Assembly: GCA_017503785.1 (NCBI GenBank)
Contig: JAFVSK010000018.1
Span: 106,079 to 170,078 of the forward strand
From: Clostridia bacterium
GTDB taxonomy: Bacteria; Bacillota; Clostridia; Oscillospirales; Acutalibacteraceae
Direction of reading: 5' to 3'
DNA: 64,000 nucleotides
This document shows positions 30,462-46,604 of this stretch, one piece after another. The position numbers and the translations under genes were made by a program. The notes beneath the pieces are model-generated. The model did no database searches. It was given only the letters and a program-made list of their open reading frames with translations, and had not been told where the DNA came from. The stretch's first letter is position 1, and every line of letters begins with the position of its first letter.

Positions 30462-32108
30462 TTATTTTACGGCGTACACGTCCACGGTACCATCCTCGTT
30501 GTAGGCATACACGTACATCATCTTACCGGGAACCTCCACGCACGAAAAGCTGGAATACCCGTCGAGTATGGTGGTGCCGGAGATCACATCCACCAGTGCG
30601 TACTCGTAGTCGGGCTTATTCACCTTCACGATCCACGGACAGAAGCTGCTGCCCTCGATCGTGAAATCCTTATCCTTCAGCGAGTAGTACGTTGTTTTAT
30701 CGTCCACCTTCTTGCTCATCAGGAACGTAGAATAGGTGTCGAAATCGCAGTCCTCGGTTTCGGTGCCCTGATACAGCACGGTGCCGTCCTTTTTGATCAG
30801 CGTATAGTTGTCGTCGTTTTTCAGGAACCACGCGTTGTTCGTCAGCTTATCCACATACGCGTACTCGTAGGTACCCTCGATGACCACGTTACCCGACAGG
30901 TCGTACAACTTTTGGTCGGCCAGCACCAGCTCGCCGTACAGATTGGGCATCGCGGTAAATTCGGCGCTGACCACTTTGCCCGTGGTATCCATATATACAT
31001 AGGCTCTCACGTCGCCATATTTGGAGGCCAGAATGTAGTCATCTTCGCTTTCCAACGGCACGAAGCCGTCTTCGGTATACGTAAACAGCGTATTGCCGTC
31101 GGAATCGTATACTGCACCGTTCAGCGCATACATACCGTTTTCAAAAAGATCGGCACCCTCCGGCAACGCGGCGCCCTTGTCGTTCACCGTCTTCTGCTGC
31201 TCATCGTCGGTGACGTACCGCACGAAGTTGCCGTACCCCGAAACCGTATACGGCGTGGTGCCCGTCACACCGTCCAGCAGCTTGCCGGCAACCGTGTCGA
31301 ACACGTACCAGTTGCCCTTGAACAGAATATCGCCTTCCTTGGCAGACAGCGAGAACATCGAATCGGTGTAATACATCAGCATTTCGTCTTTGTTCTCGGT
31401 TTGCTCGGTCAGCTCGATCACACGCACGTAGCGGTCGTTGATCTTTTTGATTTCGGCGTACTTGGCAGGAATGATCTCGCGGCCGTTCACGTCCACCAGG
31501 CCGTAGCAGTTGAGCGTGGCCAGGTTATTCATATCGTACGTCACGGGCGCCGTGGTCACCTTAAAGAAGTTCCCCACCACATCGCAGGTGGTGTACAGGC
31601 CACCGGTATCGGATTTGCCGTCAAGCGACACGATATGGTACTTGCCGGAATCATCCTTGTAAAACACACCCACTTTTGACGTGGTGCTCACCGAATCGGC
31701 GATGGTACCGATCTTGGTGGCTGTAAAGCCCGTGGGGAACGCCGTGTAGGCCTCGCCCGACACCGCACCGCCCTGCTGGACGCTCGATTGATCGTTTTGG
31801 TCGTTATCCTGAACGTTGTTTTCTTCATCGTTCAAGCCGCTGTTGGTATCGGTTTGGCCGTAGCCCTCGCTCTGGAACAGTTTTTCGGCCGTAAAGCCAA
31901 TACCCGCCAGCACCAGCAGCACCACCGCAACGATGGCAATGATCAGCCCTGTCTTCTTTTTTTGGGGCGTTTGCTGCACAGGCGGCTGCTGATACACCGG
32001 CGCCGCCGGCTGCGAGGGGGCCTCCTGAACGATAAATTGCGTGCCGCAGTTGGGGCAAAACGCATCGGTTTCCTTTACCTCGGCGTTACAAATAGGACAA
32101 ACCATCAT
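30462..32108 (-). CDS. Zinc-ribbon / single-TM protein with extracytoplasmic WG-type repeats
   Basis: MMVCPICNAEVKETDAFCPNCG, a Pro/Gln linker, a TM helix, then repeats of the YGLVDVNGREIIPAKYAEI type. Confidence 0.75.
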   Translation of the reverse strand: MMVCPICNAEVKETDAFCPNCGTQFIVQEAPSQPAAPVYQQPPVQQTPQKKKTGLIIAIVAVVLLVLAGIGFTAEKLFQSEGYGQTDTNSGLNDEENNVQDNDQNDQSSVQQGGAVSGEAYTAFPTGFTATKIGTIADSVSTTSKVGVFYKDDSGKYHIVSLDGKSDTGGLYTTCDVVGNFFKVTTAPVTYDMNNLATLNCYGLVDVNGREIIPAKYAEIKKINDRYVRVIELTEQTENKDEMLMYYTDSMFSLSAKEGDILFKGNWYVFDTVAGKLLDGVTGTTPYTVSGYGNFVRYVTDDEQQKTVNDKGAALPEGADLFENGMYALNGAVYDSDGNTLFTYTEDGFVPLESEDDYILASKYGDVRAYVYMDTTGKVVSAEFTAMPNLYGELVLADQKLYDLSGNVVIEGTYEYAYVDKLTNNAWFLKNDDNYTLIKKDGTVLYQGTETEDCDFDTYSTFLMSKKVDDKTTYYSLKDKDFTIEGSSFCPWIVKVNKPDYEYALVDVISGTTILDGYSSFSCVEVPGKMMYVYAYNEDGTVDVYAVK

Positions 32109-32129
32109 GGGATATTCCTCCTTGTCAAA

Positions 32130-32747
32130 TCAGTTAACAAACAGTGCGCTGCGCTTTTGGAAGTAGGTGCGATTCAAGAGGATCATGGCAATCGAAACAA
32201 CCACCGACGGCACAACGGTTGCCAGATCATTCACACCCGACACCACCGCCACGGCGAGGGTGTACAGCAGCGAAACAGCGGCACCGGCCGCATACAGCAC
32301 GTACAAGCAGGTGGGGCCGTTCTTCTTGTATTTCGCCAAGCGGAAGCGGGTGTACACACCAAAAGCCGACATAGCCAACAGCACCACACCGTAAAACACG
32401 TCCACCGCCTTCAGAGCAGCACCGTACAGACTATACACCTGCTCCGCCGAAACCTGACCGTTGGTTTGCACAAAATAGATGCCGCCGCTAATGTAGTTGA
32501 ACCCGTTCACCACGTTCAACACCGCACCGAGAAACAGCGCAAAGTAGATCAAGAACTTAAACCACGACATCGGCTGCTCCGCCACAGGAGGTGTGGGCGC
32601 TGCCTGCTGCGGCATCGGCTGCACGTAAACCGGAGCCTGCGGCGCCGCGGGCGCCTGCTCCCCTTCCGTAACAAACGGCGTACCGCAGGCGGTGCAAAAC
32701 CGCGCAGCATCCTCCACCACGGCGTTGCAATTGGGACATTGCTTCAT
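32130..32747 (-). CDS. Zinc-ribbon multi-pass membrane protein
   Basis: MKQCPNCNAVVEDAARFCTACG, a Pro/Ala/Gln linker and four predicted TM helices. Confidence 0.7.
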   Translation of the reverse strand: MKQCPNCNAVVEDAARFCTACGTPFVTEGEQAPAAPQAPVYVQPMPQQAAPTPPVAEQPMSWFKFLIYFALFLGAVLNVVNGFNYISGGIYFVQTNGQVSAEQVYSLYGAALKAVDVFYGVVLLAMSAFGVYTRFRLAKYKKNGPTCLYVLYAAGAAVSLLYTLAVAVVSGVNDLATVVPSVVVSIAMILLNRTYFQKRSALFVN

Positions 32748-32824
32748 AATACTTCCTCCTTAAATTAGACAAAAGGCTCCCCATAAAGTGCCTTTATGGG
32801 GAGCCTTCAAGATCCGTTTACGCG

Positions 32825-35800
32825 TTATGCGTTCTTCTTGCGTTTCTTGTAGATCACGAAGAAGATGATGGCCGCCGTCAGCAGCAGCACGCCGCCAATG
32901 ACACCCCAACGCAGGGTCTTGTTCGCCCAGAACTGTACGATAAAGGCGTTTGAGTTGATCGAAACGTTGCCAATCGTTACAGTGTATTCATTCGCCTTAC
33001 CATCGTTGCCGCTGGCACGGTCAGTACACTCGATGCGCACGTTCTGATACAAGCCCTTGTCGATGGTAAAGGTGATTGCACCGTTACCCACAGTCAGCTC
33101 ATCAGCCAGCTTATCATCAACCAGATTGACCAATTCCTTCAGCTTATTACCGTCCTCATCCACTAAGTATACCAACAGCGAATACAGCGCACCGCCGTCG
33201 TCAGTGGGGATCAGCGTAACAACCTGCTTATCGGTCTGATATCTACCGTCTTCGGTAATACCCGACACCGTTACCACAGGCGGGGTACGGTCAACAACGA
33301 AGTTGATGGCCGCATCCTTTACGTCGCTGAACGCGTCGTTCTTTGCCTTATCGGTAGACGACACCACCAGGATGTATTCGCCCTCGGCCTCAAACAGTTC
33401 CTTCTTCACCGTGTAGGTGTAGCGCTTCCACTGGCCCACACCGCCGGTGGACTCAACCGTGTAATCGGTATCCTTCACCAGCTCCACGCCGTTGAGCGTA
33501 ACGTTGTACTCTGTCAGCACGTCGGTGTTGATCTCGTGGATCACCACGTCGCTCGTTACGTTCTTCACGTAGTACTGCTTCAGCAGCTCCTGAACGTCCT
33601 CAGACAGCTCGTAGGTGGAGCCGAAGCGGTTCACCGAGAAGAGAATAGACTTTTGGGTGGTTCTGCCTGCCATGTCGGTCAAGCTGACCGACAGCGTGTA
33701 GATATCGTCGATCTCCTTCTTCTCCGCAAAGTTGTCGAAGGTGAAGGTCTGACCGAAGGTGCGGCCGGCGCGGATATCGTCAACGGACTTACCGGAGATC
33801 TTCACGCCCTTGCGGTTTACGCCGGTCAGCGTAATGGTTACGTTGTTCTCGTCCCAGTTGGTATCCGAGTAGGTCACCACGGGGATCACGTCGCCGGCAT
33901 TGGCCGACTTGTCGGCCACACCGGTGATCTCCAACGCGGGATCAATGTTATCTACAACGAAGTTCTGCTTCGCAAAGTCAGCAGCATCGTTGCCCGCCAG
34001 ATCCTTCATCGCAATATCGAAGGTGTACTCCGCATCGGCGCTGTAGGTGATAGTGGCGGTATGCGTATCGCCGTTGGATACCCAAGCAGTGGGCGCAGGA
34101 GCTGCAACCGTTGTCAGGGGATCCTGGGCCGTGATATCAAAGGTCACGCGATCAGCGGCGAAGTTGTGCTCCGTGATGGTCACAGTTGCCACACGCGTTC
34201 TCTGATAATACTTGCCGTTGTACACGTCGTTGTTATCGTAAGTAACCACGATCACCGGCAACGTCTTATCAATGGTGAACTCATACGGCTGCACCGAATT
34301 ACCGGTTTCAACCTCTTCGTTCGCATTACCGGCTTCGTCGGTGTACTTCACACTAAACGTGTAGTCGCCGTCTGCAACGTAGTCAATGGTAGCAGTCCAA
34401 GTGGTATCGTCCAAATTGCCGGTACCCTCCGTCTTGGTCCAGCCAACCACGGCAGGAATCACGCCATCGGTATTGGTAATGTCAATTTCCACCTTTTCCT
34501 GGTTGAAATTGCGCTCGGTAATCGTGATAGTAGCCTTTCTGTCGGCCTTGAAGTACTTAACGCTGCCAACGTCGGCCTGGTTGTTATCATACGATACGTT
34601 GATCTTCGGCTTCGTGATATCGATCTGGATATCCTTATATGTGGTAATCGTCGTGTTACCGGCGTTATCGGTAGCAGTTACCGTTACACAAACGTGGTTG
34701 CTATTGAAATTGCTTGCAGGGATCACGATTTCGCCGTTCCAAGAATGGATCAACTTGTCGTACTCGCCACGCACCACTTCGCCATCAACATCGGCTTGCA
34801 GTTCAGCGTTTTCCATCAACGCCGCCGTATATTCAGCATTAATATCGGCAGCAACAATCTGGTAACTAATCTCTTTCAAACCGGAATAATATCCGTTCAG
34901 ATCAGCCGTGGCACCCACATATTTAGGATCCTGCACAAACAGCTTCACAGTTACGTCGCTGTTGTTGAAACCTAGAGCATTAGCGCCTTGAGGTGCAATG
35001 GTGATTTTCGGCGGTTGCTGTTCTTCCGAGCCATCGGGAGCCTTATCGTCCACCACGATACCACGCGAATGGATAATGGTGGTATTAGTCGACTTGTCCT
35101 CCACGCGCACATACACGATCACACGCGTGTTCGGCTCAATTCGGAAGCCGTTTTCAGCATCGTATTCCACCCAGTTTTCCTCTAATTTAAACGCCTCGTC
35201 GTGGTTGACGATCTGATACTTAACGGAAGCTACACCACTGGTCTTGTCAAAGGCCGACAGCTTCACCGTAATCGTTGTTTGCGAGAAGACGTTAAACGCG
35301 ATTTCGTTCAGATCCTCCGGCTTCACCGATTTATCGCCAACAAAGATATCCAAATCGCCGGTCAACGGAGCGGTCTTATCCACCGTAAAGGTATCGACAA
35401 CCTCGTCCTTCTGTGCATTGCCGGCCAAATCCTCGCCGGTGATCTTAATGCTGTAGTTTGCTTCGGTCTCAAACGGAATTTCGGTAACAAAAACATTCGT
35501 CGCTTCTTCCGTCCAAGTGGCTTCCTGCAAATATTCCGCATAATTAAGCACGGTTTCGCCCTGCTTAAACTCGGTAATCTTCACCTCGTCGCCGGTCGTC
35601 TTATCATATTCGAAACCGGTCACTTCCAGGTTCATCAGCGTAGCATTAAAGTTGTGCTCCTTCACCGTTACCTTAACGGTCTTGTTCTTATCGTAGAAAG
35701 CACCGTTAGCCGGCTCAATCGAAATTTCCGGCTTCGTTGTATCCACCGTAAACTCCTTCTTGTAACTGGATGCGTTACCCGAACGATCGGTATATTCAAT

Positions 35801-38800
35801 TGTCAAGGTATAATCAGCATCCTCGTTGAACGTGGGAAGAACAGCCTCGTATACATCCGCACTGCCCTCGACCTTATTAAACGTCAGATCCTTCAACAAA
35901 GTCGGCGTTTCCGGATTCTTGGTCTCGTCATCATACACCTTTGTCAGATATACCTTCAGCTTTTCCTCCACTAGATCCGCAGCTCCAAAGAAGTTGGCTT
36001 CCTCAATAACGATGGTAGCCACGGTGTCGTGGTTAGCCAAGTAAAGCTTGTTATCCACATTATTGGTGTAGAACTCATTGGTGTATTTCACGCTCACTTC
36101 GGGAGCAATGTTGTCCACCACAATAGTTTTTTCGACTCCGTCGATGTCGTCATCAACAAATTCCGTTGAGTTCTGCGATTTGTCGGTAGCCACGAACGAC
36201 ACCTTACCACGGAACTGAGCAGGAATCGTAAACACAACCTCATCCGTTACGCCGTTCACCGTCACGGAAGTATCGTCTTTGCCCGTGTTACCGGAATTGA
36301 TAGCATCTGCATCTACCGTATACTTATAGGTAAAGGTATCCAGACGGGAGGTCGTATCAGTAGCCTTCAGCGTTACCGTTACTTCATCCTTGTAGAACCC
36401 AAACACCTTACCCAAACCAAAAGTAACCGCATTCCACAGCACATTCTCAAATTTGGGCGTATACGTAATGCTCAAATCGGTAGGAGCGGTCTCATCCACC
36501 GTAAAGGTGTCAACAACCTCGTCCTTCTGTGCATTGCCGGCCAAATCCTCGCCGGTGATCTTAATGCTGTAGTTCGCTTCGGTCTCAAACGGAATTTCGG
36601 CAACCCAAACATTCGTTGCTTCTTCCGTCCAAGTGGCTTTCTGCAAATACTCCGCATAATTAAGCACGGTTTCGCCCTGCTTAAACTCGGTAATCTCCAC
36701 CTTGTCGCCGGTCGTCTTATCATATTCGAAACCGGTCACTTCCAGGTTCATCAGCTCAGCAACAAAGTTGTGCTCCTTCACCGTTACCTTAACGGTCTTG
36801 TTCTTGTCGTAGAAAGCACCGTTAGCCGGCTCAATCGAAATTTCCGGCTTCACCGTATCCACCGTAATGATCTTAGAAGTGTATTGCGCCGTACTGGCTT
36901 CCAAAGCATCGTCAGCCTTAATCGTCGAGTCGTTGGTGGAGAAATCCGCATAGTTAACCGTAATCACATAGTCGGCATCATCTTCAAGCGGAATAACCAA
37001 CGTATGCTTGTCGCCCTCGTGCTTCCACTCAAACACCGTGGTTTCGTTTACATCGGCAAAACGCTGCTCCGCATCTTCTGCAGGAAGATACTCAATCTTC
37101 GTCACCTTGCCTTGGTCGTCTGTCTTTGTTACTAAAATACCAACTTCATGAACGCTCTTACCGATAGGTGCTCCCTGCTCATCGGTGTACTTATAGCCCT
37201 CGAAGAAGTTCACCTCTTCAATGGAGATCTTAGCGTCAACACTGCCATCGTAATACGCCTGCGTTGCCGCGTTGAAATCCATCACGAACGAGTCGGCATT
37301 TCTAAAGAACACGGTGGTGTTCTCATCCTTCGGCTTATAGGCAATGTCGATCTTGGGCCCTAAGGAATCTACCACAAGAACCTTATCGCCCACCATCACA
37401 TTGCTCAACCCGGCTTTGTTGGTGGCCGTAAAGGTTATCGCCTTTTGATTCAGTTCAGCCGGAATCGTAAACGTTTTGCTTACGGTTGCATCATCCGTTG
37501 CTTCAATTGCAATCTCGCCTTCAATATCTTCGCCAATCTTATAGCTAAATTTATCCAGCTTGGAAATATCATCTGTAGCAGTAAGAGTTACCTCCATCGA
37601 AGGCTTATAGAAGCCAAACGTAACTGCTTCGATTATTTTCTCAACGATCGGCTGAGAATACTCGATCTTCAATTCCGTCGGAGCGGTCTTGTCGATCCAA
37701 ATCTCGCCAACATTCACCGCTTCACTGATATATCCGGTTTCCTCGTGCTTCAGATAGATAGCCGCCGGTGTGTTTTTGCCTTCGGTCGCTATGGTGATCT
37801 TGTCCATCCAAGTGGCATCAAACAAATCGGAATTCGAAATCTTATACCCTTCAGCAGGAGTAATATCTACGTCGATCGTATACCAGCCGCTCGCCGGAAC
37901 ATCAGGGACAGAATACTTATCCTCGAAATCGTTGGTGTTCACTTTCACAGTAGCTTCGGCAGTAATATCATTATAGTTATTGCCGCCGGCAAGCGTTGCC
38001 TTTACAGTAAAGGGGCCCGTTTTGCCGCTGTTAAATGTGAGCGCACCACTCGTATTGTTAATGGAAGCAATATCGCCATCTACTACTTCATAGGTGACCG
38101 TGCCACCGGACTGACCACCCAAGGCTGTAACCGTCAGCGTGGTTTTCGAGCCATACTGCACGCTGTATTCGCTTTGGGTAAAAGCAAAACCGGTTTGATC
38201 AGCCTTAATGGTATTGATCACATAGGTGGTAGAAATAGCTTTATAGTTATTATCCCCCGCACGGGTAGCCGTGACAGTTGCCGTACCGCCGGCCTTGATG
38301 GCTTTGACGTTACCGTTTTCGTCAACTTCCACATACTCCTGACCCGCGGTCACTTCATACGTGACCTCACCGGTGGATTGCCCACCGGTAGCCTGATTGA
38401 TTACGGTGCTGTTGTAGGGCAGATCAGGCATGGTTGCATTTTCAAAAACAAAGCCGGTTTGTTCCTCTTTGGCAATGTATACGTTGAACGGGACCGCAGC
38501 CGACTGGGCCGGCGCAACCTCAACGTCTTTATCTTCATAGTTGGCCTTGGTCACCTTGACAAACACAGTGTACGAGCCTGCGTCGACAACTGTGGGGATT
38601 TCCTCTTGCCATGCGCCATCCACGCCAAGCTTATACTTAATCGTGTAGTCAGCACCTTCGTTGCCGCTTACCGTTACCACCTTTTGCGGATTACCGGTAT
38701 AGATACCCTCAAGACCCTCAACCTTGAGACTGCCGAGGACCAATTCGCCCAAAGCGATCTCTGAGGTTACCGTTTGAACGTAAGGACGATAATTGTCACC

Positions 38801-39787
38801 TCTATCAACGGTAATCGTCACCTCATAGCTACGCACTTCAGCAAACTTCGGAATGGCCGAATACTCATTTTCGTCACCCGTGATCGTATACGTAACCTTG
38901 TCATCGGGCAGAAGTGTACCCTTCAAGATTGCCACGGGGAATTTCTCTCCCGTGTACTTGTTGATGGTTTTCTCAATGGAGATACCGGTGATTTCCGCAA
39001 GAGTCACGGACAACTTAACTTCCTTTGTCAGCGCCACGTAACCGGCTTTCGAAAGCTGGACATACACCGTTTTCTCACCAACGTCGGTAATCGAAACAGG
39101 CGTCTCCGTGAAATCAATGTTGTTTTCGCTGTACTTAACAGTATAGCCCTCTGCAGTTACCAAAGCCGTGTGCGCCTCACCGTCGTACACGCCGGTATAG
39201 CCCTCAACACTAACGGAATCCTCCAGCGGATATACCTGCACGCCGTCCTTCATCAGAACGATCTTCTCGCTGGGCGTCACCGCGAAGGTAACTTCTTGCT
39301 CGTACACAGCATCGCCGTCCCAGTCGAACTCATACACTCTGGTGGGCTTGAGTCCCTGAGCGGCAAACGTTTCCAGATCCTCGGGCGAAACAGGGAACCA
39401 CAGCTCAACGTAGCTGCCGTCGCCGTCGGCAGTGTCCGAAAAATCATACGGCGTGCCGTACTCTGCATCGAGCCCCTTCTTAATTCTAAAGCCCGCATTG
39501 TCGGCAATCTCAGTGGGAGCAGTCATCTTAATACCGACCCACCAGCCGGCAGCACGGTTCAAGCCCGCGTCAGCATCGACCCACTGTAACGTAGTCTCTT
39601 CCACCAGCACCGAAACCTTCGAGGGATCCTCGTCAGCCACCGTACCGCCGGTAAAGGTCGTTACCGTGCCGTAGTCCGTGCTTGTCGATGCAAACACGTT
39701 TGCCGGGATCATCGCGATCACCAGCAAAATCGCCAAAGCGATAGCTACCAGGCGGTCGAACGATCGTCTCTTCGCGTAATTTTTCAT
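32825..39787 (-). CDS. Giant (2,320 aa) surface protein with many Ig-like repeat modules, N-terminal signal peptide and C-terminal TM anchor
   Basis: Signal peptide ..IAMIPANVFAST. Recurrent module boundaries of the type (V/I)D.T.P....(V/I) occur at least 12 times. C-terminal WGVIGGVLLLTAAIIFFVIYKKRKKNA. No LPXTG motif seen. Confidence 0.85.
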   Translation of the reverse strand: MKNYAKRRSFDRLVAIALAILLVIAMIPANVFASTSTDYGTVTTFTGGTVADEDPSKVSVLVEETTLQWVDADAGLNRAAGWWVGIKMTAPTEIADNAGFRIKKGLDAEYGTPYDFSDTADGDGSYVELWFPVSPEDLETFAAQGLKPTRVYEFDWDGDAVYEQEVTFAVTPSEKIVLMKDGVQVYPLEDSVSVEGYTGVYDGEAHTALVTAEGYTVKYSENNIDFTETPVSITDVGEKTVYVQLSKAGYVALTKEVKLSVTLAEITGISIEKTINKYTGEKFPVAILKGTLLPDDKVTYTITGDENEYSAIPKFAEVRSYEVTITVDRGDNYRPYVQTVTSEIALGELVLGSLKVEGLEGIYTGNPQKVVTVSGNEGADYTIKYKLGVDGAWQEEIPTVVDAGSYTVFVKVTKANYEDKDVEVAPAQSAAVPFNVYIAKEEQTGFVFENATMPDLPYNSTVINQATGGQSTGEVTYEVTAGQEYVEVDENGNVKAIKAGGTATVTATRAGDNNYKAISTTYVINTIKADQTGFAFTQSEYSVQYGSKTTLTVTALGGQSGGTVTYEVVDGDIASINNTSGALTFNSGKTGPFTVKATLAGGNNYNDITAEATVKVNTNDFEDKYSVPDVPASGWYTIDVDITPAEGYKISNSDLFDATWMDKITIATEGKNTPAAIYLKHEETGYISEAVNVGEIWIDKTAPTELKIEYSQPIVEKIIEAVTFGFYKPSMEVTLTATDDISKLDKFSYKIGEDIEGEIAIEATDDATVSKTFTIPAELNQKAITFTATNKAGLSNVMVGDKVLVVDSLGPKIDIAYKPKDENTTVFFRNADSFVMDFNAATQAYYDGSVDAKISIEEVNFFEGYKYTDEQGAPIGKSVHEVGILVTKTDDQGKVTKIEYLPAEDAEQRFADVNETTVFEWKHEGDKHTLVIPLEDDADYVITVNYADFSTNDSTIKADDALEASTAQYTSKIITVDTVKPEISIEPANGAFYDKNKTVKVTVKEHNFVAELMNLEVTGFEYDKTTGDKVEITEFKQGETVLNYAEYLQKATWTEEATNVWVAEIPFETEANYSIKITGEDLAGNAQKDEVVDTFTVDETAPTDLSITYTPKFENVLWNAVTFGLGKVFGFYKDEVTVTLKATDTTSRLDTFTYKYTVDADAINSGNTGKDDTSVTVNGVTDEVVFTIPAQFRGKVSFVATDKSQNSTEFVDDDIDGVEKTIVVDNIAPEVSVKYTNEFYTNNVDNKLYLANHDTVATIVIEEANFFGAADLVEEKLKVYLTKVYDDETKNPETPTLLKDLTFNKVEGSADVYEAVLPTFNEDADYTLTIEYTDRSGNASSYKKEFTVDTTKPEISIEPANGAFYDKNKTVKVTVKEHNFNATLMNLEVTGFEYDKTTGDEVKITEFKQGETVLNYAEYLQEATWTEEATNVFVTEIPFETEANYSIKITGEDLAGNAQKDEVVDTFTVDKTAPLTGDLDIFVGDKSVKPEDLNEIAFNVFSQTTITVKLSAFDKTSGVASVKYQIVNHDEAFKLEENWVEYDAENGFRIEPNTRVIVYVRVEDKSTNTTIIHSRGIVVDDKAPDGSEEQQPPKITIAPQGANALGFNNSDVTVKLFVQDPKYVGATADLNGYYSGLKEISYQIVAADINAEYTAALMENAELQADVDGEVVRGEYDKLIHSWNGEIVIPASNFNSNHVCVTVTATDNAGNTTITTYKDIQIDITKPKINVSYDNNQADVGSVKYFKADRKATITITERNFNQEKVEIDITNTDGVIPAVVGWTKTEGTGNLDDTTWTATIDYVADGDYTFSVKYTDEAGNANEEVETGNSVQPYEFTIDKTLPVIVVTYDNNDVYNGKYYQRTRVATVTITEHNFAADRVTFDITAQDPLTTVAAPAPTAWVSNGDTHTATITYSADAEYTFDIAMKDLAGNDAADFAKQNFVVDNIDPALEITGVADKSANAGDVIPVVTYSDTNWDENNVTITLTGVNRKGVKISGKSVDDIRAGRTFGQTFTFDNFAEKKEIDDIYTLSVSLTDMAGRTTQKSILFSVNRFGSTYELSEDVQELLKQYYVKNVTSDVVIHEINTDVLTEYNVTLNGVELVKDTDYTVESTGGVGQWKRYTYTVKKELFEAEGEYILVVSSTDKAKNDAFSDVKDAAINFVVDRTPPVVTVSGITEDGRYQTDKQVVTLIPTDDGGALYSLLVYLVDEDGNKLKELVNLVDDKLADELTVGNGAITFTIDKGLYQNVRIECTDRASGNDGKANEYTVTIGNVSINSNAFIVQFWANKTLRWGVIGGVLLLTAAIIFFVIYKKRKKNA
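35367..35750. repeat. Internal 384-bp duplication in the giant gene, copy 2
   Basis: Near-identical to 36483-36866, exactly 1,116 bp away. The encoded 128 aa differ at about 10 positions. Confidence 0.9.
36483..36866. repeat. Internal 384-bp duplication in the giant gene, copy 1
   Basis: See 35367-35750. Encodes TVDTVKPEISIEPANGAFYDKNKTVKVTVKEHNF...DTFTVDETAP. Confidence 0.9.
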
Positions 39788-40203
39788 TCCGCATCTCTCC
39801 TTACTTCTTTAAACTCTGTATAAAAACGTCCGTTTAACAAACAATGCAGCCCCAACGAAAGGATCCACAGGGCCATCAGCGAAAACAGCACCCACAGATG
39901 CCACTGACAGGCTCGACCGATAATAAACACGATCAGCAAACACAACAGGGCACCGTCGGCAACAGCTGCCGGTTGGTTCTTGAAAAACCTCAAAAACCCA
40001 AAGGCTTGGGGCGTGCTTCGATGGATCAGGATCGCCCACAGCACAGTGGTGATCAATCCAAGCCAAAACAAGGCGCCCGAAATGTACAAGAATGCCGGTA
40101 CGGTATCGGCAAGCGGCATCAGCAGCACCGCTGCTGCCACCACCAAAACGCCTGCCAGATACCCACACAACAACCGCTTTTTGTAACGTAAATTACGACT
40201 CAT
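39784..40203 (-). CDS. Small multi-pass membrane protein
   Basis: 139 aa with 4 hydrophobic segments and a GAGGTGA RBS. The stop overlaps the start of the giant gene. Confidence 0.65.
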   Translation of the reverse strand: MSRNLRYKKRLLCGYLAGVLVVAAAVLLMPLADTVPAFLYISGALFWLGLITTVLWAILIHRSTPQAFGFLRFFKNQPAAVADGALLCLLIVFIIGRACQWHLWVLFSLMALWILSLGLHCLLNGRFYTEFKEVRRDAE

Positions 40204-40216
40204 AGCTTACGTCACC

Positions 40217-40675
40217 TCAAACGATGATCTCACTAGAATGTGTATAGGTAATATCACACTCAACCTGGAACGTTCCATCCGCCACAGCGGGCGCAGCCTG
40301 TACAGCTGCCATCGCCTCAGCGGCGCTCAACACCGTGGTTTCGGAAGCGGTTGCATTCAGCGTTGTCGTTTCGGAAGCTTCCATGCTATCGTAGCGGTCT
40401 TGAGCACTGATCTTGGTAGTTTCCTTTGTTTCGTAATCCAACCGCGCCGACGTGGTTTTGTTCGAATAGTCCACCTTGGTAGCGTGCTTTTTGTTATTGC
40501 CCGCTATCGAGCTCTTATTATGGATGTTTTCAACAGCTCTTCGCTTGTTCGTACCCGTAATATCACCGATCACACCGCGAATGTTCAACAGAAAGAAGAT
40601 CAACACCGTGGCGATCAGCATCACGATGGCGAGGACGAGTCCGCCTATGAAAATATAGTTGTATATCTCTTGCAT
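40217..40675 (-). CDS. Single-TM protein with a cytoplasmic tail carrying three ETT motifs
   Basis: 152 aa. N-terminal TM followed by basic residues (positive-inside). KETTKI, SETTTL and SETTVL at aa 84-116. AAGGAGGGG RBS. Confidence 0.65.
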   Translation of the reverse strand: MQEIYNYIFIGGLVLAIVMLIATVLIFFLLNIRGVIGDITGTNKRRAVENIHNKSSIAGNNKKHATKVDYSNKTTSARLDYETKETTKISAQDRYDSMEASETTTLNATASETTVLSAAEAMAAVQAAPAVADGTFQVECDITYTHSSEIIV

Positions 40676-40688
40676 AGCCGACCCCTCC

Positions 40689-42410
40689 TTATTCCTCTTT
40701 TATTGAATTGTACTTATCCAATGCACTGGTAATCTGACTCTGCAACGCCTCAATGTCTTCTTTCAGTGCCGGGATATTCACGGTTCCGGTTTTGGCATAA
40801 ACGTCATTCATCATAGCCGTAACATCGTCTTTTGAAATGTATTTAAAGGTAGTTTTCGGGTCGTTTGACAACAAATAGATTATCTGACTCCAAACACGAA
40901 TCTTTAGATCATTTTCTTTATCTTCCTTGTTGCTCACTTCATCTCGCAGGATCACCAAGGTGTTCCAAAGAGTTTGGTAGGCCTCACTCAACTTTTCGGT
41001 TTGTTTTCCTCTTCCATATTTATTGATTTGGCCTAATGCGGTAGAAATATCATCGTAGTGCTTTGCCATGGCAAGCGACTCATCGGAACTATCAAGAACC
41101 TCTTTAAACCATGTTGACGCCGCACTGTATCGATCACTCGGTACGTTCACATTGCTGTAGAAAAGAATATGCTCGCCGATTTCAAAGCAAACCTTTTGGT
41201 ATTTTGCAAGATCGGCCGTCTTCAGTTCCTCCAGAGGCTTTACGGTAGTGGTATACCCGTTTTTACCGGTTTTGTCGATACCTCGGCGCAGTTTTTCCAG
41301 CAAGCCGCTTTCGCTCGCGTCGTTTTCCAGTACGCCATCTTCAACCAAGCAGTCTAAAAGGCCGTCATAGCCGCTGCCACCCTCGTCATGGTCGCCGATA
41401 TAGGCCTCAGTGCGTGTGGGATCAATCAAAATCGCCTCTACATAATCATCCACGGTTTCAGCGGTATACCACGAAAACTCATAGTTATCCGCCTGAGCAG
41501 CCTGGGCCGAAAAATACCCAAACACCGACGTGGCAGCGAATACCAAGGTTAACGCCGCACTGGTGGCAAACAGCGACAACTTTTTCTTCTGCTGCTTAAT
41601 ATACTCGTCTTCAAAGTCCTTATAATGCTCCAGATCGTACATTAACTCCGCGCACGACTGATAGCGGTCGGCAGGGTTGTTTTGCGTACATTTTAAGATG
41701 ATCTTCTCCAAGCCGGTGGACAGCGCCGGATTGATCTCGGTGATCGGCCGGATCTCATACGGCGGCTGGCTCGGGTTCATGCCCGTCACCAAGTGGTAGA
41801 TCGTGGCACCCAAGCAATAAATATCGGTGCGGGCATCGGTTTGCCCCATGCCGCCGTATTGCTCCGGAGCCGCATAGCCACGCGTACCCAAGCAGGTGGT
41901 ATCCTCCACCTTCGAAGCCTTATGCTCGCGAGCGGTACCGAAGTCGATCAGCGAAATGGTGCCGTCAGGCTTGAGCATCACGTTAGCCGGCTTCATATCA
42001 CGGTAGATGATGGCCGGCTCGCGGGTGTGCAGATACCCCAGCACGTCGCACAGCTGCTTCGACCATTCAATAACGTCTTCCTGCGGCTGCGCGCCGAAAT
42101 CGCGCAGAGCCTTGTCCAGCGAGTTACCCTGAACGTAGTCCATAATAATAATGAACGAATCCGCAGTATCAATAACGTCAACGATACTGGGCAAATGCTT
42201 ATGACTCAGTTTTTTCAGAATATCGGTTTCGGCCACCAAGCCTTGCTTCACCGCTTCAAAATCCAAAACGCCGTCCTTACGCACTTCCTTAACGGCCCAT
42301 TGTTTATTCGCTCTTTCGTTCATGGCGAGGTACACAACGCTCATACCGCCCTGACCGACTTTATTTAATATTTTATATTTTCCGTCGACAAGCGAACCTA
42401 CTTCTAACAT
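40689..42410 (-). CDS. Hanks-type Ser/Thr protein kinase with TM helix and ~270-aa extracytoplasmic domain (not PASTA-like)
   Basis: GQGGMSVVY, WAVKEV, YRDMKPANVML, DFGTAR and GTRGYAAPEQ. TM LSLFATSAALTLVFAATSVFGYF. C-terminal domain unrecognised. Confidence 0.9.
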   Translation of the reverse strand: MLEVGSLVDGKYKILNKVGQGGMSVVYLAMNERANKQWAVKEVRKDGVLDFEAVKQGLVAETDILKKLSHKHLPSIVDVIDTADSFIIIMDYVQGNSLDKALRDFGAQPQEDVIEWSKQLCDVLGYLHTREPAIIYRDMKPANVMLKPDGTISLIDFGTAREHKASKVEDTTCLGTRGYAAPEQYGGMGQTDARTDIYCLGATIYHLVTGMNPSQPPYEIRPITEINPALSTGLEKIILKCTQNNPADRYQSCAELMYDLEHYKDFEDEYIKQQKKKLSLFATSAALTLVFAATSVFGYFSAQAAQADNYEFSWYTAETVDDYVEAILIDPTRTEAYIGDHDEGGSGYDGLLDCLVEDGVLENDASESGLLEKLRRGIDKTGKNGYTTTVKPLEELKTADLAKYQKVCFEIGEHILFYSNVNVPSDRYSAASTWFKEVLDSSDESLAMAKHYDDISTALGQINKYGRGKQTEKLSEAYQTLWNTLVILRDEVSNKEDKENDLKIRVWSQIIYLLSNDPKTTFKYISKDDVTAMMNDVYAKTGTVNIPALKEDIEALQSQITSALDKYNSIKEE

Positions 42411-42421
42411 TGTGTCACCCC

Positions 42422-43189
42422 TTAATATGTTCTCACGAGAACGACCGAAATGTTATCGCGCTCTTCCCGCTGCTTGTTCAGATCAATAAGAAATCTGCCG
42501 TTATTCTCCATAGTCGCAGAGTCGGTTAACGCAGCAGGTTGAAATTTCTCATAAATCTCATCAGGAGTAATCTCGTGCCGGAAGCCGTCTGAACACAGCA
42601 TATACACCGCATCGCTTTTGACATCGCCAAAAAACATATCGGGATATACCTCGTCCGATGCGCCAACGCACTGAAGTAACACACTTCTGCGGGGATCCAC
42701 CTTTGCCTCCTCGGCAGTCATTCTACCCAACTGGACCTCGCGGGCCACAAAGGTTTGATCCTCGGTTACCTGATGAAGTGTATCAGAAATCTCATAGGCA
42801 CGGGAGTCACCAACGTTTAAAATGTAATATCGGGTTTGGGTAAGGAGCATTACCACCACGGTGGTACCCAAACGGATGCCCTGACTGGCACCGTAGGCAC
42901 CGATGGTGCTGTTCTGCTTCACCACAATGCTCTCCCACTGACTGCGAATGGTGGCATCCTCAATGGGGGCGGAGCACAAGGCGGGCAGTTCGTTATACAC
43001 CCAATCGTTAAAGGCCGACACCACCGTCGTGCTTGCAACCTCACCCTTGGCAAGGCCGCCCATACCATCGCAAAGAATGGCAAACACCATTTTTCCCTGC
43101 TGCGTATTCAGCACTTTTACCGACAAACCGTCTTGGTTGGTGTCCTTAACATTGCCGATATCCGTATTTGCAGAAATCAAAAATTCCAT
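42422..43189 (-). CDS. PP2C-family Ser/Thr phosphatase
   Basis: TDIGNVKDTNQDG, AILCDGMGG, LNVGDSRAY, LCSDGF and NISVVLV motifs. Confidence 0.9.
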   Translation of the reverse strand: MEFLISANTDIGNVKDTNQDGLSVKVLNTQQGKMVFAILCDGMGGLAKGEVASTTVVSAFNDWVYNELPALCSAPIEDATIRSQWESIVVKQNSTIGAYGASQGIRLGTTVVVMLLTQTRYYILNVGDSRAYEISDTLHQVTEDQTFVAREVQLGRMTAEEAKVDPRRSVLLQCVGASDEVYPDMFFGDVKSDAVYMLCSDGFRHEITPDEIYEKFQPAALTDSATMENNGRFLIDLNKQREERDNISVVLVRTY

Positions 43190-43238
43190 ATTGGTAACCC
43201 CTTAGGCAAGAAAATTATAAAGCTCTAAAACGACCAAT

Positions 43239-43278
43239 AGATAGGGTACAGGCGGCGGTCTCACCGCCTGTACCCTAT
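43239..43278 (-). terminator. Strong hairpin between the FHA-protease and PP2C genes (attenuator/processing site or weak terminator)
   Basis: Perfect 16-bp stem GATAGGGTACAGGCGG / CCGCCTGTACCCTATC with an 8-nt loop. Only a short, interrupted T-tract follows on the minus strand. Confidence 0.35.
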
Positions 43279-43307
43279 CCGTATTCAACAAATTCTACGC
43301 GTTGGTC

Positions 43308-45044
43308 TTATTTCTTGTACTCAAACTTCTCGTCGGCCAACAGGATCTTGTCGCCATCTTTCAGTTCAACTTCCTGACCGGCGCGCGCCTTCACACCGTT
43401 AACGAAGGTGCCGTTGGCAGCCTTATTGTCAACAATGTAGGTAACACCGTCACGAACCACAAAGCGAGCATGCACACGGCTGATATTCGTATTGCCGCCC
43501 ACGCAGTAATCAACACTGCTGCGCTCTCTGCCCACCGTGAACTCGGCCGAGCAGATCGGAATACGCTCGTTGTTGCTGGAACGCACCAACGCACCGCCGT
43601 TCACGTTCTGCGACAGAACGGTGGTTTCACCGGCGCTCTGCGACAAAACGGTGGTTTCGCCGGCGCTCTGCGACAGAACGGTGGTTTCACCGGCAGAGGG
43701 GGCTGCAGGCTTCGCAGGAGCAGCCACAGGCTTCACGGCAGCCACCGGAGCGGGAGCAGCCACAGGCTTCGCGGCAACCGGAGCCACGGGAGCAACCGGA
43801 GCAGCCACCGGAGCGGGCTGAGCCTTTTTCTTGTTCATCGAAACGATCAGAATGATAACAACAACGATCACAGCAATCGCCACAACCGCGATGATACCGA
43901 TCATCACGTACTGATTCATAGCAGATTTCTGCTCTTCCTTCGCCAGCGCGTCGATAGCCTCATCCAAAGCCTCGGCAGCATTGTCGATGGTAGCCTGCGA
44001 ATCGGCAGTCAAAGCAGCCTTCGCATCCTTCAGAGCAGCCTTCATCGCCTTATAGGACTCTTCGGTGTAATCCTGAGCGGCATAGCCCTCAGCCTTGGTG
44101 ATCAGGCTCGACAGCTCGCTGGTGTTCAGCGTAGCACCGGTGGTCGTCGTAGTAGTATCGGCGGTCGTCGTTTTGATGGGACCGGGGCCAGCGAACGAAA
44201 TGTTCAGCGCAGTCAGGTAGGTAATCAGCTCTTTACTACTAATAGCCATGAAACGGCTTCCGTCTCCTGCGGCGTTCACGCCCACCACGTTACCGTCTTT
44301 GTCTACCAGCGGGCCGCCGGAGTTGCCACCGGTGATCAGCGCGCTGTTCACTACGCAGTTAACATCTTTGTATTCATGAACTTCATAGTTGTCATCGTAT
44401 GCATCAAACTCTACGTCACCGACCTTGTTCACATTACCACTACTAATGGTAATATCGTCAATGTCGTAGGTGTTTTTAGAATCAATACTTACCAAATCCG
44501 AAGGATAACCGATAGCAAACACCTCGTCGGTCTGCTTCAATTCGTCGCTGTTGCGGATGGCCAGAGGGGTGCGAGCAATCTGCTGGCTCAGTGTCAGCAC
44601 GGCCAGGTCGAGCTCGGGGTTAGCGTTGGTGAGCTTCGCCTTCACGTAAGTACCACGATACAGCATTACGCGCAGCTCCAGCATATCCTTGATCTGAGCC
44701 GCCGTACGGTTGGTGCTGTTTTCGGCGTTGGTGAGCTTTGCCCAGTTAACATACCACTCATCCGGGAAACCGTTCGCCACGTGCTGGCAGGTTACCACGG
44801 TGGTGTCGTTCACCAGGAAGCCGGTGCCATAGTGAAGCGGCACTTCGGTAGCAGTTTCAGGGTCTTTAAACCACACCTGCACCTGTACAACGCCGTTCTT
44901 GGCCTCGGTGACAGCCTGGCCCACTTCGGCAGCATTGGCGCTGAACGCCATACCGAACACCAAGCACATCATCATGCTTACTGCGAGAATCAAGCTAACG
45001 AGCTTTGTTCTCTTTGCTTCGGGATTCTTTGTTTTGAAGAACAT
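43308..45044 (-). CDS. Fusion protein: signal peptide, trypsin-like (S1/HtrA-type) protease, helical stalk, TM helix, Pro/Ala linker, 3x GETTVLSQSA repeat, FHA domain
   Basis: Protease triad context: TCQHVANG, DLAVLTL, GNSGGPLVDKDGNVVGV. TM MIGIIAVVAIAVIVVVIILIV followed by KKK. FHA domain: FTVGRE...ISRVHARF...NGTFVNG. Confidence 0.85.
   Translation of the reverse strand: MFFKTKNPEAKRTKLVSLILAVSMMMCLVFGMAFSANAAEVGQAVTEAKNGVVQVQVWFKDPETATEVPLHYGTGFLVNDTTVVTCQHVANGFPDEWYVNWAKLTNAENSTNRTAAQIKDMLELRVMLYRGTYVKAKLTNANPELDLAVLTLSQQIARTPLAIRNSDELKQTDEVFAIGYPSDLVSIDSKNTYDIDDITISSGNVNKVGDVEFDAYDDNYEVHEYKDVNCVVNSALITGGNSGGPLVDKDGNVVGVNAAGDGSRFMAISSKELITYLTALNISFAGPGPIKTTTADTTTTTTGATLNTSELSSLITKAEGYAAQDYTEESYKAMKAALKDAKAALTADSQATIDNAAEALDEAIDALAKEEQKSAMNQYVMIGIIAVVAIAVIVVVIILIVSMNKKKAQPAPVAAPVAPVAPVAAKPVAAPAPVAAVKPVAAPAKPAAPSAGETTVLSQSAGETTVLSQSAGETTVLSQNVNGGALVRSSNNERIPICSAEFTVGRERSSVDYCVGGNTNISRVHARFVVRDGVTYIVDNKAANGTFVNGVKARAGQEVELKDGDKILLADEKFEYKK
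43608..43697. repeat. 3 x 30-nt tandem repeat encoding (SA)GETTVLSQ
   Basis: CTGCGACAGAACGGTGGTTTCACCGGCGCT repeated three times with 2-3 substitutions. Confidence 0.9.
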
Positions 45045-45145
45045 TTTCTACTCCTCCACGTTGAATTTGTTTATGTAATCGGTAATAGTACCGTTCACAT
45101 CGTCGTCACAAAAAATTTCAAATTGTGATACACTGGTCTTAATCC

Positions 45146-45165
45146 TTCGTAGAACTGATACTTCT
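45146..45165. repeat. Inverted repeat, left arm (IRL)
   Basis: TTCGTAGAACTGATACTTCT, the exact reverse complement of 46585-46604. Confidence 0.95.
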
Positions 45166-45394
45166 AAAAATGAATATATATTCCAAAAAAAGGTATAATA
45201 CACCTACTATTGCGGTTATTATATCACTCGGAACAGGGTTTGTCAATTATTCCCTGCCGGTTTTTGTCGAAAATATTAAGAATTTGTAAATTTTTGCCGT
45301 GTGAGATTTTATGCAGTTAGTATTATTCGCCGTTTGTGGTCAGCGCTGTGGTCGGAGAACTTCTCAATCTATAATCAAGAAAGGATGATTACTT

Positions 45395-46513
45395 ATGTCA
45401 AGGCGCGGGGATCATATTCATAAGCGAAAGGACGGACGTTGGGAGGGCCGCTATCGTATAGGGACCAACATGGACGGAACGGCTCATTATCGCTCAGTAT
45501 ATGCGCACACCTATGCTGACTGTAAAGCCAAACTGACCGAAGCAACCGCCCGGCGACACAGCGAACCGCCTTCGTCAGCAAAGCAACTGCGTTTTCGTGA
45601 AGCCATATATCAGTGGCTTTCTGTCAAGCAAATGCAACTAAAGAGCTCCACCAAGCTAAAATATCGTGACATGATTGAAAAACATATTTTACCGGAACTG
45701 GGAGAACTTCCCTTATCCACTCTTAATGCCGTTGTAATCAGCTCTTTTTTAGAGCGAAAGCTACATTGCGGGGGTGTCAAAAGCAGTACTCCCTTAGCAT
45801 CTTCCTATGTAAGAACCATGGCGATTCTCATCACTTCAGCACTGGAGTTTGCCGCCTCTCTCGGCTGGTGCGTCCCTCTGAAAATTCCACCGTGTCTGCC
45901 AAGCGTTCCTAAGAAAGAACCAACCGTATTAACAAAAATCGAAGAAGAAACTTTGACGGACTTTTTGTTGCAAGAGCATTCTCTAACCGTATTGGGAACT
46001 CTGCTGGCTCTACAAGCAGGCCTGCGCATCGGTGAGGTCTGTGCCCTGCGTTGGTGTGATATTGACCTTGAAAAACGCTTACTACACGTTCGGCATACGC
46101 TATCCCGAACCGTATCAGAAGAAACTTCTAAAACCGTTTTCATTTTAGATCGACCGAAATCACGTTCATCCCACCGTGACGTTCCGTTAACTGCAGCCTT
46201 GCTGCAAAAGCTACATGCAGCGCGCGAAATTCGCCTTTCCGATTACGTTATTTCTGAAACCTCATCGTTTGTTGGTACACGAACATTTGAATACCGCTAT
46301 AAAGCCCTGCTCAAAAGAGCAGGTGTTCGGCCAATTAATTTCCATGCGTTGCGACACACCTACGCTACCCGCTGTGCCGAAGCCGGAATGGATGCCAAGA
46401 TGCTAAGCATGCTGTTGGGGCACGCTTCCGCGACAACAACGTTAAATGTGTATGTACATCCCTCTATGGAAAGTGCATCACAGCAGGTAGAAGCTATTTA
46501 CCGTCTTGCCTGA
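45395..46513 (+). CDS. Tyrosine site-specific recombinase (phage-integrase family)
   Basis: 372 aa. N-terminal KRKDGRWEGRYRIG arm-type motif, GLRIGEVCALRW, HALRHTYATRCAEAG and LGHASATTTLNVYVH (R..H-x-x-R..H..Y). Confidence 0.9.
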   Translation: MSRRGDHIHKRKDGRWEGRYRIGTNMDGTAHYRSVYAHTYADCKAKLTEATARRHSEPPSSAKQLRFREAIYQWLSVKQMQLKSSTKLKYRDMIEKHILPELGELPLSTLNAVVISSFLERKLHCGGVKSSTPLASSYVRTMAILITSALEFAASLGWCVPLKIPPCLPSVPKKEPTVLTKIEEETLTDFLLQEHSLTVLGTLLALQAGLRIGEVCALRWCDIDLEKRLLHVRHTLSRTVSEETSKTVFILDRPKSRSSHRDVPLTAALLQKLHAAREIRLSDYVISETSSFVGTRTFEYRYKALLKRAGVRPINFHALRHTYATRCAEAGMDAKMLSMLLGHASATTTLNVYVHPSMESASQQVEAIYRLA

Positions 46514-46530
46514 ACGGGGTCAAAATAAGG

Positions 46531-46560: not shown

Positions 46561-46584
46561 GCAAGGCTCTGCGCTGTTCTTTAC

Positions 46585-46604
46585 AGAAGTATCAGTTCTA
46601 CGAA
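46585..46604. repeat. Inverted repeat, right arm (IRR)
   Basis: AGAAGTATCAGTTCTACGAA. Confidence 0.95.

Follow-up and report, generated by a model that had tools for sequence, protein, structure and literature searches.

Organisation of the operon

The 64,000-nucleotide (nt) stretch of DNA analysed here (hereafter the window), from contig JAFVSK010000018.1 of a Clostridia bacterium, carries an operon of six closely spaced open reading frames (ORFs), all on the minus strand. In order of transcription, these encode a protease joined through a transmembrane (TM) helix to a cytoplasmic FHA domain (578 amino acids (aa), 43308..45044), a PP2C/PPM phosphatase (255 aa, 42422..43189), a Hanks Ser/Thr kinase (573 aa, 40689..42410), a small protein with one TM helix (152 aa, 40217..40675), a second small protein with four TM helices (139 aa, 39784..40203), and a giant surface protein built of immunoglobulin (Ig)-like modules (2320 aa, 32825..39787). 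Directly upstream of these genes lies a 1.4-kb invertible element (45146-46604), which is absent from an earlier model-made interpretation of the same DNA (hereafter the sequence-only reading). The intergenic gaps measure 118, 11, 13 and 13 nt from the fusion gene onwards and are followed by a 4-nt overlap, and each of the six starts is preceded by a ribosome-binding site (GGAGG, AAGGGG or AAGGAG). The coordinates, gaps and overlap agree with those of the sequence-only reading, the domain calls of which all hold (Pfam, NCBIfam), as do its signal peptides, TM helices and ETT motifs (sequence and hydropathy scans).

The promoter of the operon (45218..45246, minus strand) lies inside the invertible element and points into the genes. 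It consists of TTGACA, a 17-nt spacer and TGnTATAAT, matches the consensus at 12/12 positions, and is the best, and the only 12/12, sigma-70 site in 15 kb. At the opposite end, the strongest intrinsic terminator of the region (32772..32808, minus strand; 17-bp stem, 8 GC pairs, T-rich tail) is situated directly 3' of the giant gene. The operon has its own promoter and terminator, and the six genes are therefore taken to form one transcription unit.

The six gene products

The fusion protein, as delimited by Pfam, family alignment, AlphaFold2 (AF2) and Foldseek, opens with a signal peptide and an HtrA-fold protease, continues through a three-helix FIVAR-like domain, a TM helix and a Pro/Ala linker, and ends in three SAGETTVLSQ repeats and the FHA domain; Pfam reports Trypsin_2 at 5.6e-25 and FHA at 6.6e-15 (all features in this section lie on the minus strand). 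In family alignments, the extracytoplasmic HtrA-like protease domain (aa ~45-285, 44190..44912) carries H88, D146 and S242 as invariant residues among both 21 and 44 family members, so the catalytic residues that the sequence-only reading had picked out by their contexts are conserved. The AF2 model of the ectodomain has a predicted local distance difference test (pLDDT) score of 90, and the top Foldseek matches of the protease in the PDB are HtrA1, HtrA3, HtrA2 and the HtrA of M. tuberculosis (E 6e-17, target TM-score ~0.8); by sequence, the closest PDB entries are HtrA1, HtrA2 and DegQ. The fold, the H-D-S triad and the extracytoplasmic location are thus shared with HtrA/DegP proteases. However, no PDZ domain was found in the fusion by Pfam, its score against the NCBIfam model degP_htrA_DO (53 bits) is far below the family cut-off (416), and it possesses a C-terminal TM anchor and a cytoplasmic FHA domain. 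The FIVAR-like domain follows the protease, and Pfam annotates FIVAR in many homologues. Specific NCBIfam models were found neither for the fusion nor for the two small proteins or the giant protein.

The TM helix of the fusion (aa 383-405, 43830..43898), recognised from the sequence and from hydropathy in orthologues, bears KKK on its cytoplasmic side. The three tandem SAGETTVLSQ repeats beyond it (aa 450-479, 43608..43697) are putative phospho-acceptor and FHA-ligand sites: in the family alignment E-T-T-x-L is present twice as invariant columns, and two to three copies of GETTVL stand just before the FHA domain. The residue at Thr+3 of these repeats is Leu, which is a classical FHA preference. 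Within the FHA domain itself (aa ~485-577, 43314..43592), G505, R523, H525, N544 and T546 are invariant across the family, and S522 is either S or G. In keeping with the sequence-only reading, the ETT motifs, taken with the FHA domain, have the appearance of a true writer/reader pair for phospho-threonine. Our literature search found no description of an HtrA/trypsin-FHA fusion, or of an FHA operon controlled by an inverton.

Similar motifs recur in the 152-aa protein with a single TM helix (the 1-TM protein), in which a TM helix at the N-terminus is followed by a low-complexity tail. This tail carries ETT/T-x-[VIL]-L motifs on the cytoplasmic side, and a motif of the IHTxExI type is present at the C-terminus. 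Its orthologues at diverged loci share the N-terminal TM helix, the juxtamembrane segment and the motif at the extreme C-terminus, and between these conserved ends they carry one to seven copies of T-x-[VIL]-L (ETTVL, ETTLL, ATDVL, PTDVL, LTSVL) at a spacing of ~10 aa, which are kept even where the remainder of the tail has diverged. Judged by sequence, T-x-[VIL]-L repeats that would fit FHA ligands are present in the 1-TM protein and the fusion alike. The 139-aa protein with four TM helices (the 4-TM protein) has the conserved motifs LFWxG and LHxxxNG(R/K)xY, and we regard it as a partner of the giant protein because the two are fused, at the N-terminus of the latter, in two of the loci compared below (L120 and L123).

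The phosphatase matches PP2C_2 (3.7e-7) and the NCBIfam model Stp1/IreP (2.5e-50), the latter at 171 bits, below the curated cut-off of 230. The kinase (Pkinase, 1.5e-44), for which the closest PDB sequences are PrkC, StkP and PknB, comprises a kinase domain (aa 1-270), a TM helix (~279-300) and an ectodomain (aa 301-573) that AF2 models as an all-alpha solenoid with a pLDDT of 91.6. Foldseek returned no specific PDB relative of this ectodomain, only a generic resemblance to ARM/TPR-like solenoids (E at least 0.08), such that no sensor class can be assigned to it. Among 62 kinases, recovered with the full-length kinase as query, cytoplasmic columns are mostly at least 90% conserved, and identity in the ectodomain is 38-45%.

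Several kinases of other composition were encountered alongside these. Two close relatives, P0144 (827 aa, with a fused FHA domain) and P0143 (889 aa, with Sel1 repeats), add to the variety of architectures seen in the module. The giant gene is often followed by that of a second Ser/Thr kinase in the membrane, which has TPR repeats and is reminiscent of TsjD of the type VII secretion system T7SSj (L085 19666-21462, L086 20070-21656, L094, L096, L112, L114 and L115), and L087-L089 contain an extra kinase of 426-477 aa between the PP2C gene and the main kinase.

The giant protein, with Big_13 and Big_3 matches, has a Sec signal peptide, Ig-like modules, a C-terminal TM helix and a 9-aa tail. Its membrane-proximal part (aa ~1630-2319; ~700 aa together with the TM helix) aligns collinearly with the C-terminal ends of its orthologues (E 1e-60 to 1e-165), whereas the distal ~1500 aa have no matches in these orthologues, or only weak ones at the level of repeats. 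The giant gene also contains an internal duplication (35367..36782), in which 300-nt copies, directly repeated at 35367-35666 and 36483-36782, are 95% identical and correspond to protein repeats of ~127 aa (aa 975-1101 and 1347-1473); this similarity points to recent recombination or module expansion. A PDB sequence search with the giant protein gave no matches, no beta-propeller was detected in it by Pfam, and neither a cleavage site nor an adhesin-type tip domain was identified.

Conservation across loci

Relatives of the fusion were searched among 5.8 billion proteins, yielding 184 proteins of ~500-600 aa each, every one with Trypsin_2 plus FHA, from Clostridia, Ruminococcaceae and Lachnospiraceae metagenome-assembled genomes. 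An exhaustive profile search recovered at least 150 fusion clusters at 50% identity, with full-length matches at E <= 1e-124, mostly from Clostridia of human and animal guts. A scan of genome contigs with full-length alignment was dominated by the generic trypsin motif GNSGGPLVD, and returned full-length relatives only at L001, from the Lachnospiraceae isolate MGYG-HGUT-00127, and L002 (comparison loci are labelled in this manner throughout), with FHA-only matches at L003, L013, L027 and L040. In five neighbourhoods, the fusion (32-66% identical to that of the window), a 255-aa PP2C, a ~570-aa kinase, one or more small TM proteins and a giant protein of 1661 to >3780 aa follow each other in constant order.

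The linkage was quantified with a metagenome scan seeded with the GETTVL plus FHA region, which gave 80 loci, the ORFs of which were called and searched with phmmer. The fusion ORF is intact in 70 of these, which form 33 clusters of gut-metagenome loci at 80% fusion identity. Counting only clusters with enough downstream DNA, a PP2C gene comes after the fusion in 27/28 clusters, the kinase follows in 24/24, and an ORF of at least 1000 aa follows in 15/15, with homology to the C-terminal region of the window's giant protein in 13 of the 15. The linkage of the fusion to PP2C, kinase and giant genes, on which the sequence-only reading depended, is thus conserved, and this survey of gene order supports the view that the six genes constitute a conserved functional unit.

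Conservation within the unit is uneven. In comparison with L081, identity is 96% for the kinase domain, 86% for FHA, 79% for PP2C and 72% for the protease, and falls to 52% for FIVAR, 46% for the 1-TM protein, 46% for the giant stalk and 40% for the kinase ectodomain, while the distal part of the giant protein has no match. Judged by these identities, the extracellular parts diverge much faster than the cytoplasmic parts, a pattern that would be expected if the outside of the system faces changing ligands.

The protein in the first position varies as well. In look-ups seeded with the kinase, the core of PP2C, kinase, small TM protein and giant protein was found behind a DUF6382-FHA protein, with no protease, in L173, L175 and L176, and behind a Trypsin_2-FHA fusion in L174. 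Furthermore, a DUF6382-(EATGLL)x4-FHA protein occupies the first position in L013, and L091 encodes an additional Zn-ribbon/7-TM/FHA protein. From these arrangements, it appears that the core is constant and that the N-terminal domain of the FHA protein is exchangeable.

This exchange bears directly upon the role of the giant protein, which the sequence-only reading had treated as a possible target of the protease, to be cut from the cell surface at a time decided by the phospho-threonine state. The model for such a scheme is the LapA/LapG/LapD system of Pseudomonas, where c-di-GMP, acting via a separate receptor, controls the cysteine protease LapG, and the surface protein concerned is a giant adhesin. 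Protease and giant protein are indeed co-transcribed here and co-conserved in the fusion family (a giant ORF in 15/15 clusters, as above), both extend their functional parts outward from the same membrane, in which they are anchored, and phase-variable expression is typical of adhesins. However, orthologues of the giant protein occur with protease-less DUF6382-FHA proteins in all four of L013, L173, L175 and L176, the giant protein lacks a recognisable cleavage site or adhesin-type tip, and Pfam and NCBIfam reveal no sequence homology to LapG, LapD or RTX adhesins. The likeness to the Lap system is one of logic only, with the giant protein of the window no more than a putative substrate, and we consider regulated adhesin release an improbable account of the operon. 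Since the giant protein also occurs with protease-less FHA proteins, it is more likely to serve as a conserved sensor or scaffold than as an obligate protease substrate.

The same protease-less variants count against a role in quality control, whereby the HtrA-like protease would clear misfolded or stalled giant protein, and the kinase and phosphatase would report secretion stress. HtrA proteases are classical extracytoplasmic quality-control enzymes, and the protease has their fold and is encoded in one transcription unit with a very large Sec substrate. Nevertheless, the PDZ domain with which HtrA senses misfolded C-termini is absent, and the scheme gives the T-x-x-L repeats and the FHA domain no role; it seems to us very unlikely.

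An invertible promoter

The element upstream of the operon is bounded by two inverted repeats (IRs; unstranded), the proximal IR-L (45146..45170) and the distal IR-R (46580..46604), which pair with each other over 25 nt at 92% complementarity, including a 20-nt exact core, and which are separated by 1409 nt. Between them, on the plus strand, lies the gene for a 372-aa tyrosine recombinase (45395..46513; Phage_integrase 5.2e-26, Phage_int_SAM_3) that is 55% identical to the recombinase in the corresponding position at L081. Repeats of this kind are also present in L081 (24 nt, 100% complementary, 1406 nt apart), L123 (25 nt, 96% complementary) and L174 (22 nt, 100% complementary), and in all four loci a promoter lies ~40-50 nt inside one IR and faces outward. 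The promoter scores 12/12, with TG, in the window, L174 and L081, and 11/12 in L123. The window and L174 have it directed into the operon, with the recombinase gene divergent (ON), whereas in L081 and L123 the promoter points away and the recombinase gene is co-directional with the operon (OFF). Moreover, the L081 segment aligns to that of the window only as its reverse complement, relative to the operon. Taken together, these comparisons of sequence argue strongly for a switch of the Hin kind that is operated by a tyrosine recombinase, with the operon predicted to be ON in the window.

A further indication comes from a single sample, SRR12529278 (contigs L170 and L172), in which one contig ends at 45175 and another, of 1469 nt, spans exactly 45146-46614. 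Both break points are 30-mers, composed of the 20-nt IR core plus 10 nt. The Logan assembly graph, for which we take k to be 31, would not be broken by a 20-nt repeat alone; such breaks are what reads of the inverted right junction would produce, and they offer an indirect sign of switching within one population.

Invertible promoters are familiar from Salmonella hin/fljBA, from fimS and from cwpV/RecV of C. difficile. The present element resembles the hin switch in its short IRs, its outward-facing promoter, the recombinase gene inside the segment, and the control of a surface structure, but differs from it in that the recombinase is of the tyrosine type, whereas Hin is a serine recombinase, and in that the operon under control is a signalling module. 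We also considered whether the recombinase could be solely the integrase of a prophage or genomic island; this was rejected, as IRs of 22-25 nt bound just the recombinase gene and a consensus promoter at four loci, in both orientations.

At most loci without this element, the position just upstream of the fusion gene is taken by a gene for a conserved protein of ~450-500 aa (typically ~480 aa) with a weak N-terminal helix-turn-helix of the Cro/C1 type (e.g. L083 8462-9949 and L086 8278-9723), which is a candidate transcriptional regulator or output of the module.

Relationship to type VII secretion and Tad pilus loci

Although the sequence-only reading took the combination of genes to be undescribed, four of the six have counterparts in the type VII secretion systems (T7SSs) termed T7SSd/e. 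The components listed for these by Garrett et al. (microLife 2024, PMC11217815) include the kinase TseD, the outer domain of which is helical; the PPM phosphatase TseF; TseH, which combines one TM helix with an unstructured stretch in the cytoplasm; the large protein TseI, which has a Sec signal, Ig-like domains and, at its C-terminus, a TM helix; and TseJ, a cytoplasmic DUF6382-FHA protein, in addition to TseK, an ATPase, WXG100 and YukD-like proteins. A trypsin-type component is not mentioned there. The window's kinase, PP2C, 1-TM protein and giant protein can accordingly be described as TseD-, TseF-, TseH- and TseI-like, the TseH match being by description only. A separate FHA protein is present in both cases, and orthologues of the kinase and giant protein occur in loci with EssC, WXG100 and YukD genes. 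However, the FHA protein of the window carries an HtrA-type protease outside the cell and a TM helix in place of the DUF6382 of TseJ, and the operon further differs in having a 4-TM protein and an invertible promoter, and no match to the ATPase, WXG100 or ubiquitin-like components.

These likenesses raise the question of whether the operon has become separated from a type VIIe-like secretion system, the TseC ATPase, WXG100 and YukD-like proteins of which would be encoded elsewhere in the genome. The giant protein would then be a TseI conduit or target-recognition fibre, the kinase, PP2C and FHA protein would act as a gate on secretion, and the processing of substrates or of the apparatus would fall to the protease, as it does to the mycosin MycP in ESX. 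In addition to the four matching proteins, this explanation draws on orthologous modules that stand beside genes for an EssC-like ATPase, WXG100, YukD and DUF6382-FHA in L083/L084 and L085, while at L088 the neighbour is a partial EssC-like ORF; relative to the T7SS-adjacent L083, identity is 72% for the kinase domain and 39%, over 635 aa, for the giant stalk. Yet an EssC-like gene lies within 10 kb in only 3/33 clusters. The window itself yielded no EssC/TseC ATPase: its large ORFs are without FtsK_SpoIIIE in Pfam, phmmer with the EssC of L083 and of L085 found nothing, and apart from the giant protein there is no ORF longer than 1247 aa. Likewise, phmmer with all ORFs of the L083 and L085 T7SS regions detected no WXG100 or YukD homologue among the window ORFs of at least 50 aa, although the sensitivity of this search is limited for such small, fast-diverging proteins.

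Additional evidence against a detached T7SS is that the same core is found with a different machine. In L173 (1-8900), L175 (1-9200) and L176 (1-9200), the DUF6382-FHA module is located directly downstream of a Tad/Flp pilus cluster (T2SSF, Flp1_like, TadE, DUF5702 and Peptidase_A24), and because of this second association the core is not bound to a single machine; no homologue of the Tad genes was found in the 64-kb window. Furthermore, Sec signal peptides are present on giant protein and protease alike, and the operon has its own promoter and terminator. On balance, we regard a detached secretion locus as unlikely.

Parallels with other signalling systems

A second relative of the operon is the epibiont sensing and response (Esr) pathway of Actinomycetes (Wang et al., bioRxiv September 2026, PMC13622651). 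In this threat-sensing pathway, a surface filament of Ig repeats, the tip of which diversifies, acts together with kinases, a phosphatase and an output protein that bears an FHA domain. The output protein is phosphorylated in a disordered region preceding the FHA domain and occurs in at least 13 domain configurations; 40% of Esr loci adjoin esx genes, and the pathway is reported to be effectively confined to Actinomycetes (PMC13622651). The parallels with the window are extensive: a Sec-exported Ig-repeat filament with a diversifying distal part, a Ser/Thr kinase, a phosphatase, Thr motifs ahead of a C-terminal FHA domain (of which phosphorylation is here predicted only), a variable N-terminal domain on the same protein, and a linkage to T7SS genes that is frequent and not obligatory. 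Nevertheless, Pfam found no vWA, MoxR AAA+ or transglutaminase (EsrD) domain among the six operon products or their neighbours, the filament of the window is anchored by a TM helix and has no propeller detectable by Pfam, the host belongs to the Clostridia, and the output is an extracellular protease, whereas in Esr it is transcriptional change. The system of Kaur et al. 2020 was considered as a further match and set aside, as it concerns vWA-MoxR systems with a different architecture.

Threonine phosphorylation also regulates type VI secretion systems (T6SSs), through the PpkA/PppA/Fha1 pathway and the TssL-Fha pair of Agrobacterium, as discussed in PMC11217815. A membrane Hanks kinase, a PP2C, an FHA protein and post-translational control of an envelope machine are common to both, yet T6SS genes are lacking in the window, the cell is Gram-positive, and the FHA protein is an enzyme in its own right, exposed on the outside. 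Among catalogued defence systems, PADLOC recognised none in the operon, returning domain-level matches only (PD-T4-6 kinases, RT-protease).

Proposed function

We lean, with modest confidence, towards the view that the operon is a phase-variable, stand-alone version of a TseD/TseF/TseH/TseI-type phospho-threonine envelope module that signals to a protease outside the cell. Under this view, events affecting the giant protein or the cell envelope would activate the kinase, with the trigger probably sensed via the giant protein and the kinase ectodomain. The kinase would then phosphorylate the cytoplasmic tails of the 1-TM protein and the fusion at their T-x-[VIL]-L repeats, which PP2C would reset. 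The FHA domain of the fusion could bind the resulting phospho-threonines either in cis or in trans, on a multivalent scaffold provided by the 1-TM protein.

A precedent for binding in cis is offered by GarA and OdhI of Mycobacterium and Corynebacterium, in which an ETT(S)-type Thr motif upstream of a single FHA domain is written by a Hanks kinase and bound by that domain within the same chain. The fusion shares with these an E-T-T-x-hydrophobic motif before FHA in one polypeptide, but its motif is repeated two to three times, it is membrane-anchored and has a protease fused on the outside, and a second protein carries the same repeats. The activity of HtrA-type proteases depends on oligomerisation, and binding might alter the clustering or conformation of the fusion through its single TM helix, and so gate the protease outside. 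We infer that the protease is a lineage-specific output of the pathway, replacing the DUF6382 of related modules.

Several considerations weigh against this proposal. Phosphorylation, FHA binding and protease gating are all inferred, from sequence, and the direction of signalling (inside-out or outside-in) cannot be read from it. Approximately half of the 1-TM orthologues lack the strict motif [EDQ][ST][TSG][VILTSGK][LIVF] and have the looser T-D-[VI]-L or T-S-V-L. In the FHA 'GR' motif, the Arg (R506) is replaced by Lys in several family members. Cis binding may also be impeded by the short distance, ~10 residues, between the end of the last GETTVL repeat and the FHA domain. Additionally, inversion within a population is deduced from assembly breaks and not from reads, and the absence of T7SS and Tad genes applies to the 64-kb window, such that a locus of this kind may lie elsewhere in the genome.

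A more speculative extension, which we advance tentatively, is that the giant hypervariable Ig-like protein acts as an antenna reporting contact with phages, epibionts or other cells to the kinase, whereupon multivalent binding of phospho-threonines to FHA beneath the membrane would assemble and activate the HtrA-type protease on the outer face, as an inside-out switch. The operon would in that case be a Clostridial counterpart of Esr that has a direct enzymatic output and is turned on and off across the population by a self-encoded inverton.

Genomic context and neighbouring genes

The G+C content of the operon is 0.47-0.52, and that of 30000-47000 of the window 0.47-0.55, compared with about 0.60-0.65 in the flanks, and the operon and its switch occupy a different genomic context in L081. 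The low G+C relative to the flanks and the different context suggest that the operon is horizontally mobile or acquired.

Zn-ribbon and SPFH genes at 29493-32747 were examined as potential members of the operon and rejected, given the strong terminator in between and their absence from L081. Two Zn-ribbon membrane proteins of 205 aa and 548 aa are encoded just past this terminator (30462-32747), the larger of which combines WG_beta_rep repeats with a TM helix. Zn-ribbon proteins are encountered again in L091 and L158-L166, and WG_beta_rep proteins are also found immediately upstream of the DUF6382-FHA modules in L173, L175 and L176; a functional link of these proteins to the module is possible.

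Elsewhere in the window, a 633-aa protein with nine MORN repeats and a weak TIR_2 match (8.3e-6, just below the Pfam cut-off) is encoded at 51241-53142, and an 844-aa protein with a DUF4062 domain at 55127-57661; both are possible defence or signalling genes. Phage-type genes at 19424-24690, including a large terminase (23386-24690) and a weak portal-like match (19424-21196), probably represent a prophage or its remnant. Two adjacent proteins of c-di-GMP turnover, one of 1247 aa (dCache-HAMP-GGDEF-EAL-PAS) and the other of 503 aa (GGDEF-EAL), are encoded at 58560-63995.

Implications

Three features of the operon appear to be new: the HtrA-FHA transmembrane fusion as an output, the stand-alone setting with no T7SS or Tad genes nearby, and control by a self-encoded inverton. 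If the proposed function is correct, an extracellular protease of a Gram-positive bacterium would be controlled from the cytoplasm by Ser/Thr phosphorylation, and we know of no described case of such transmembrane control. Since the set of kinase, PP2C, 1-TM and giant Ig-like proteins can stand alone or adjoin Tad pili, we find it more apt to regard it as a portable module for sensing at the surface, with FHA outputs that can be exchanged, than as a part of the T7SS secretion channel. The operon also links this module to the Esr pathway newly reported from Actinomycetes. The inverton, moreover, adds phase variation to a signalling system, and has a bearing on the heterogeneity of strains in the gut.

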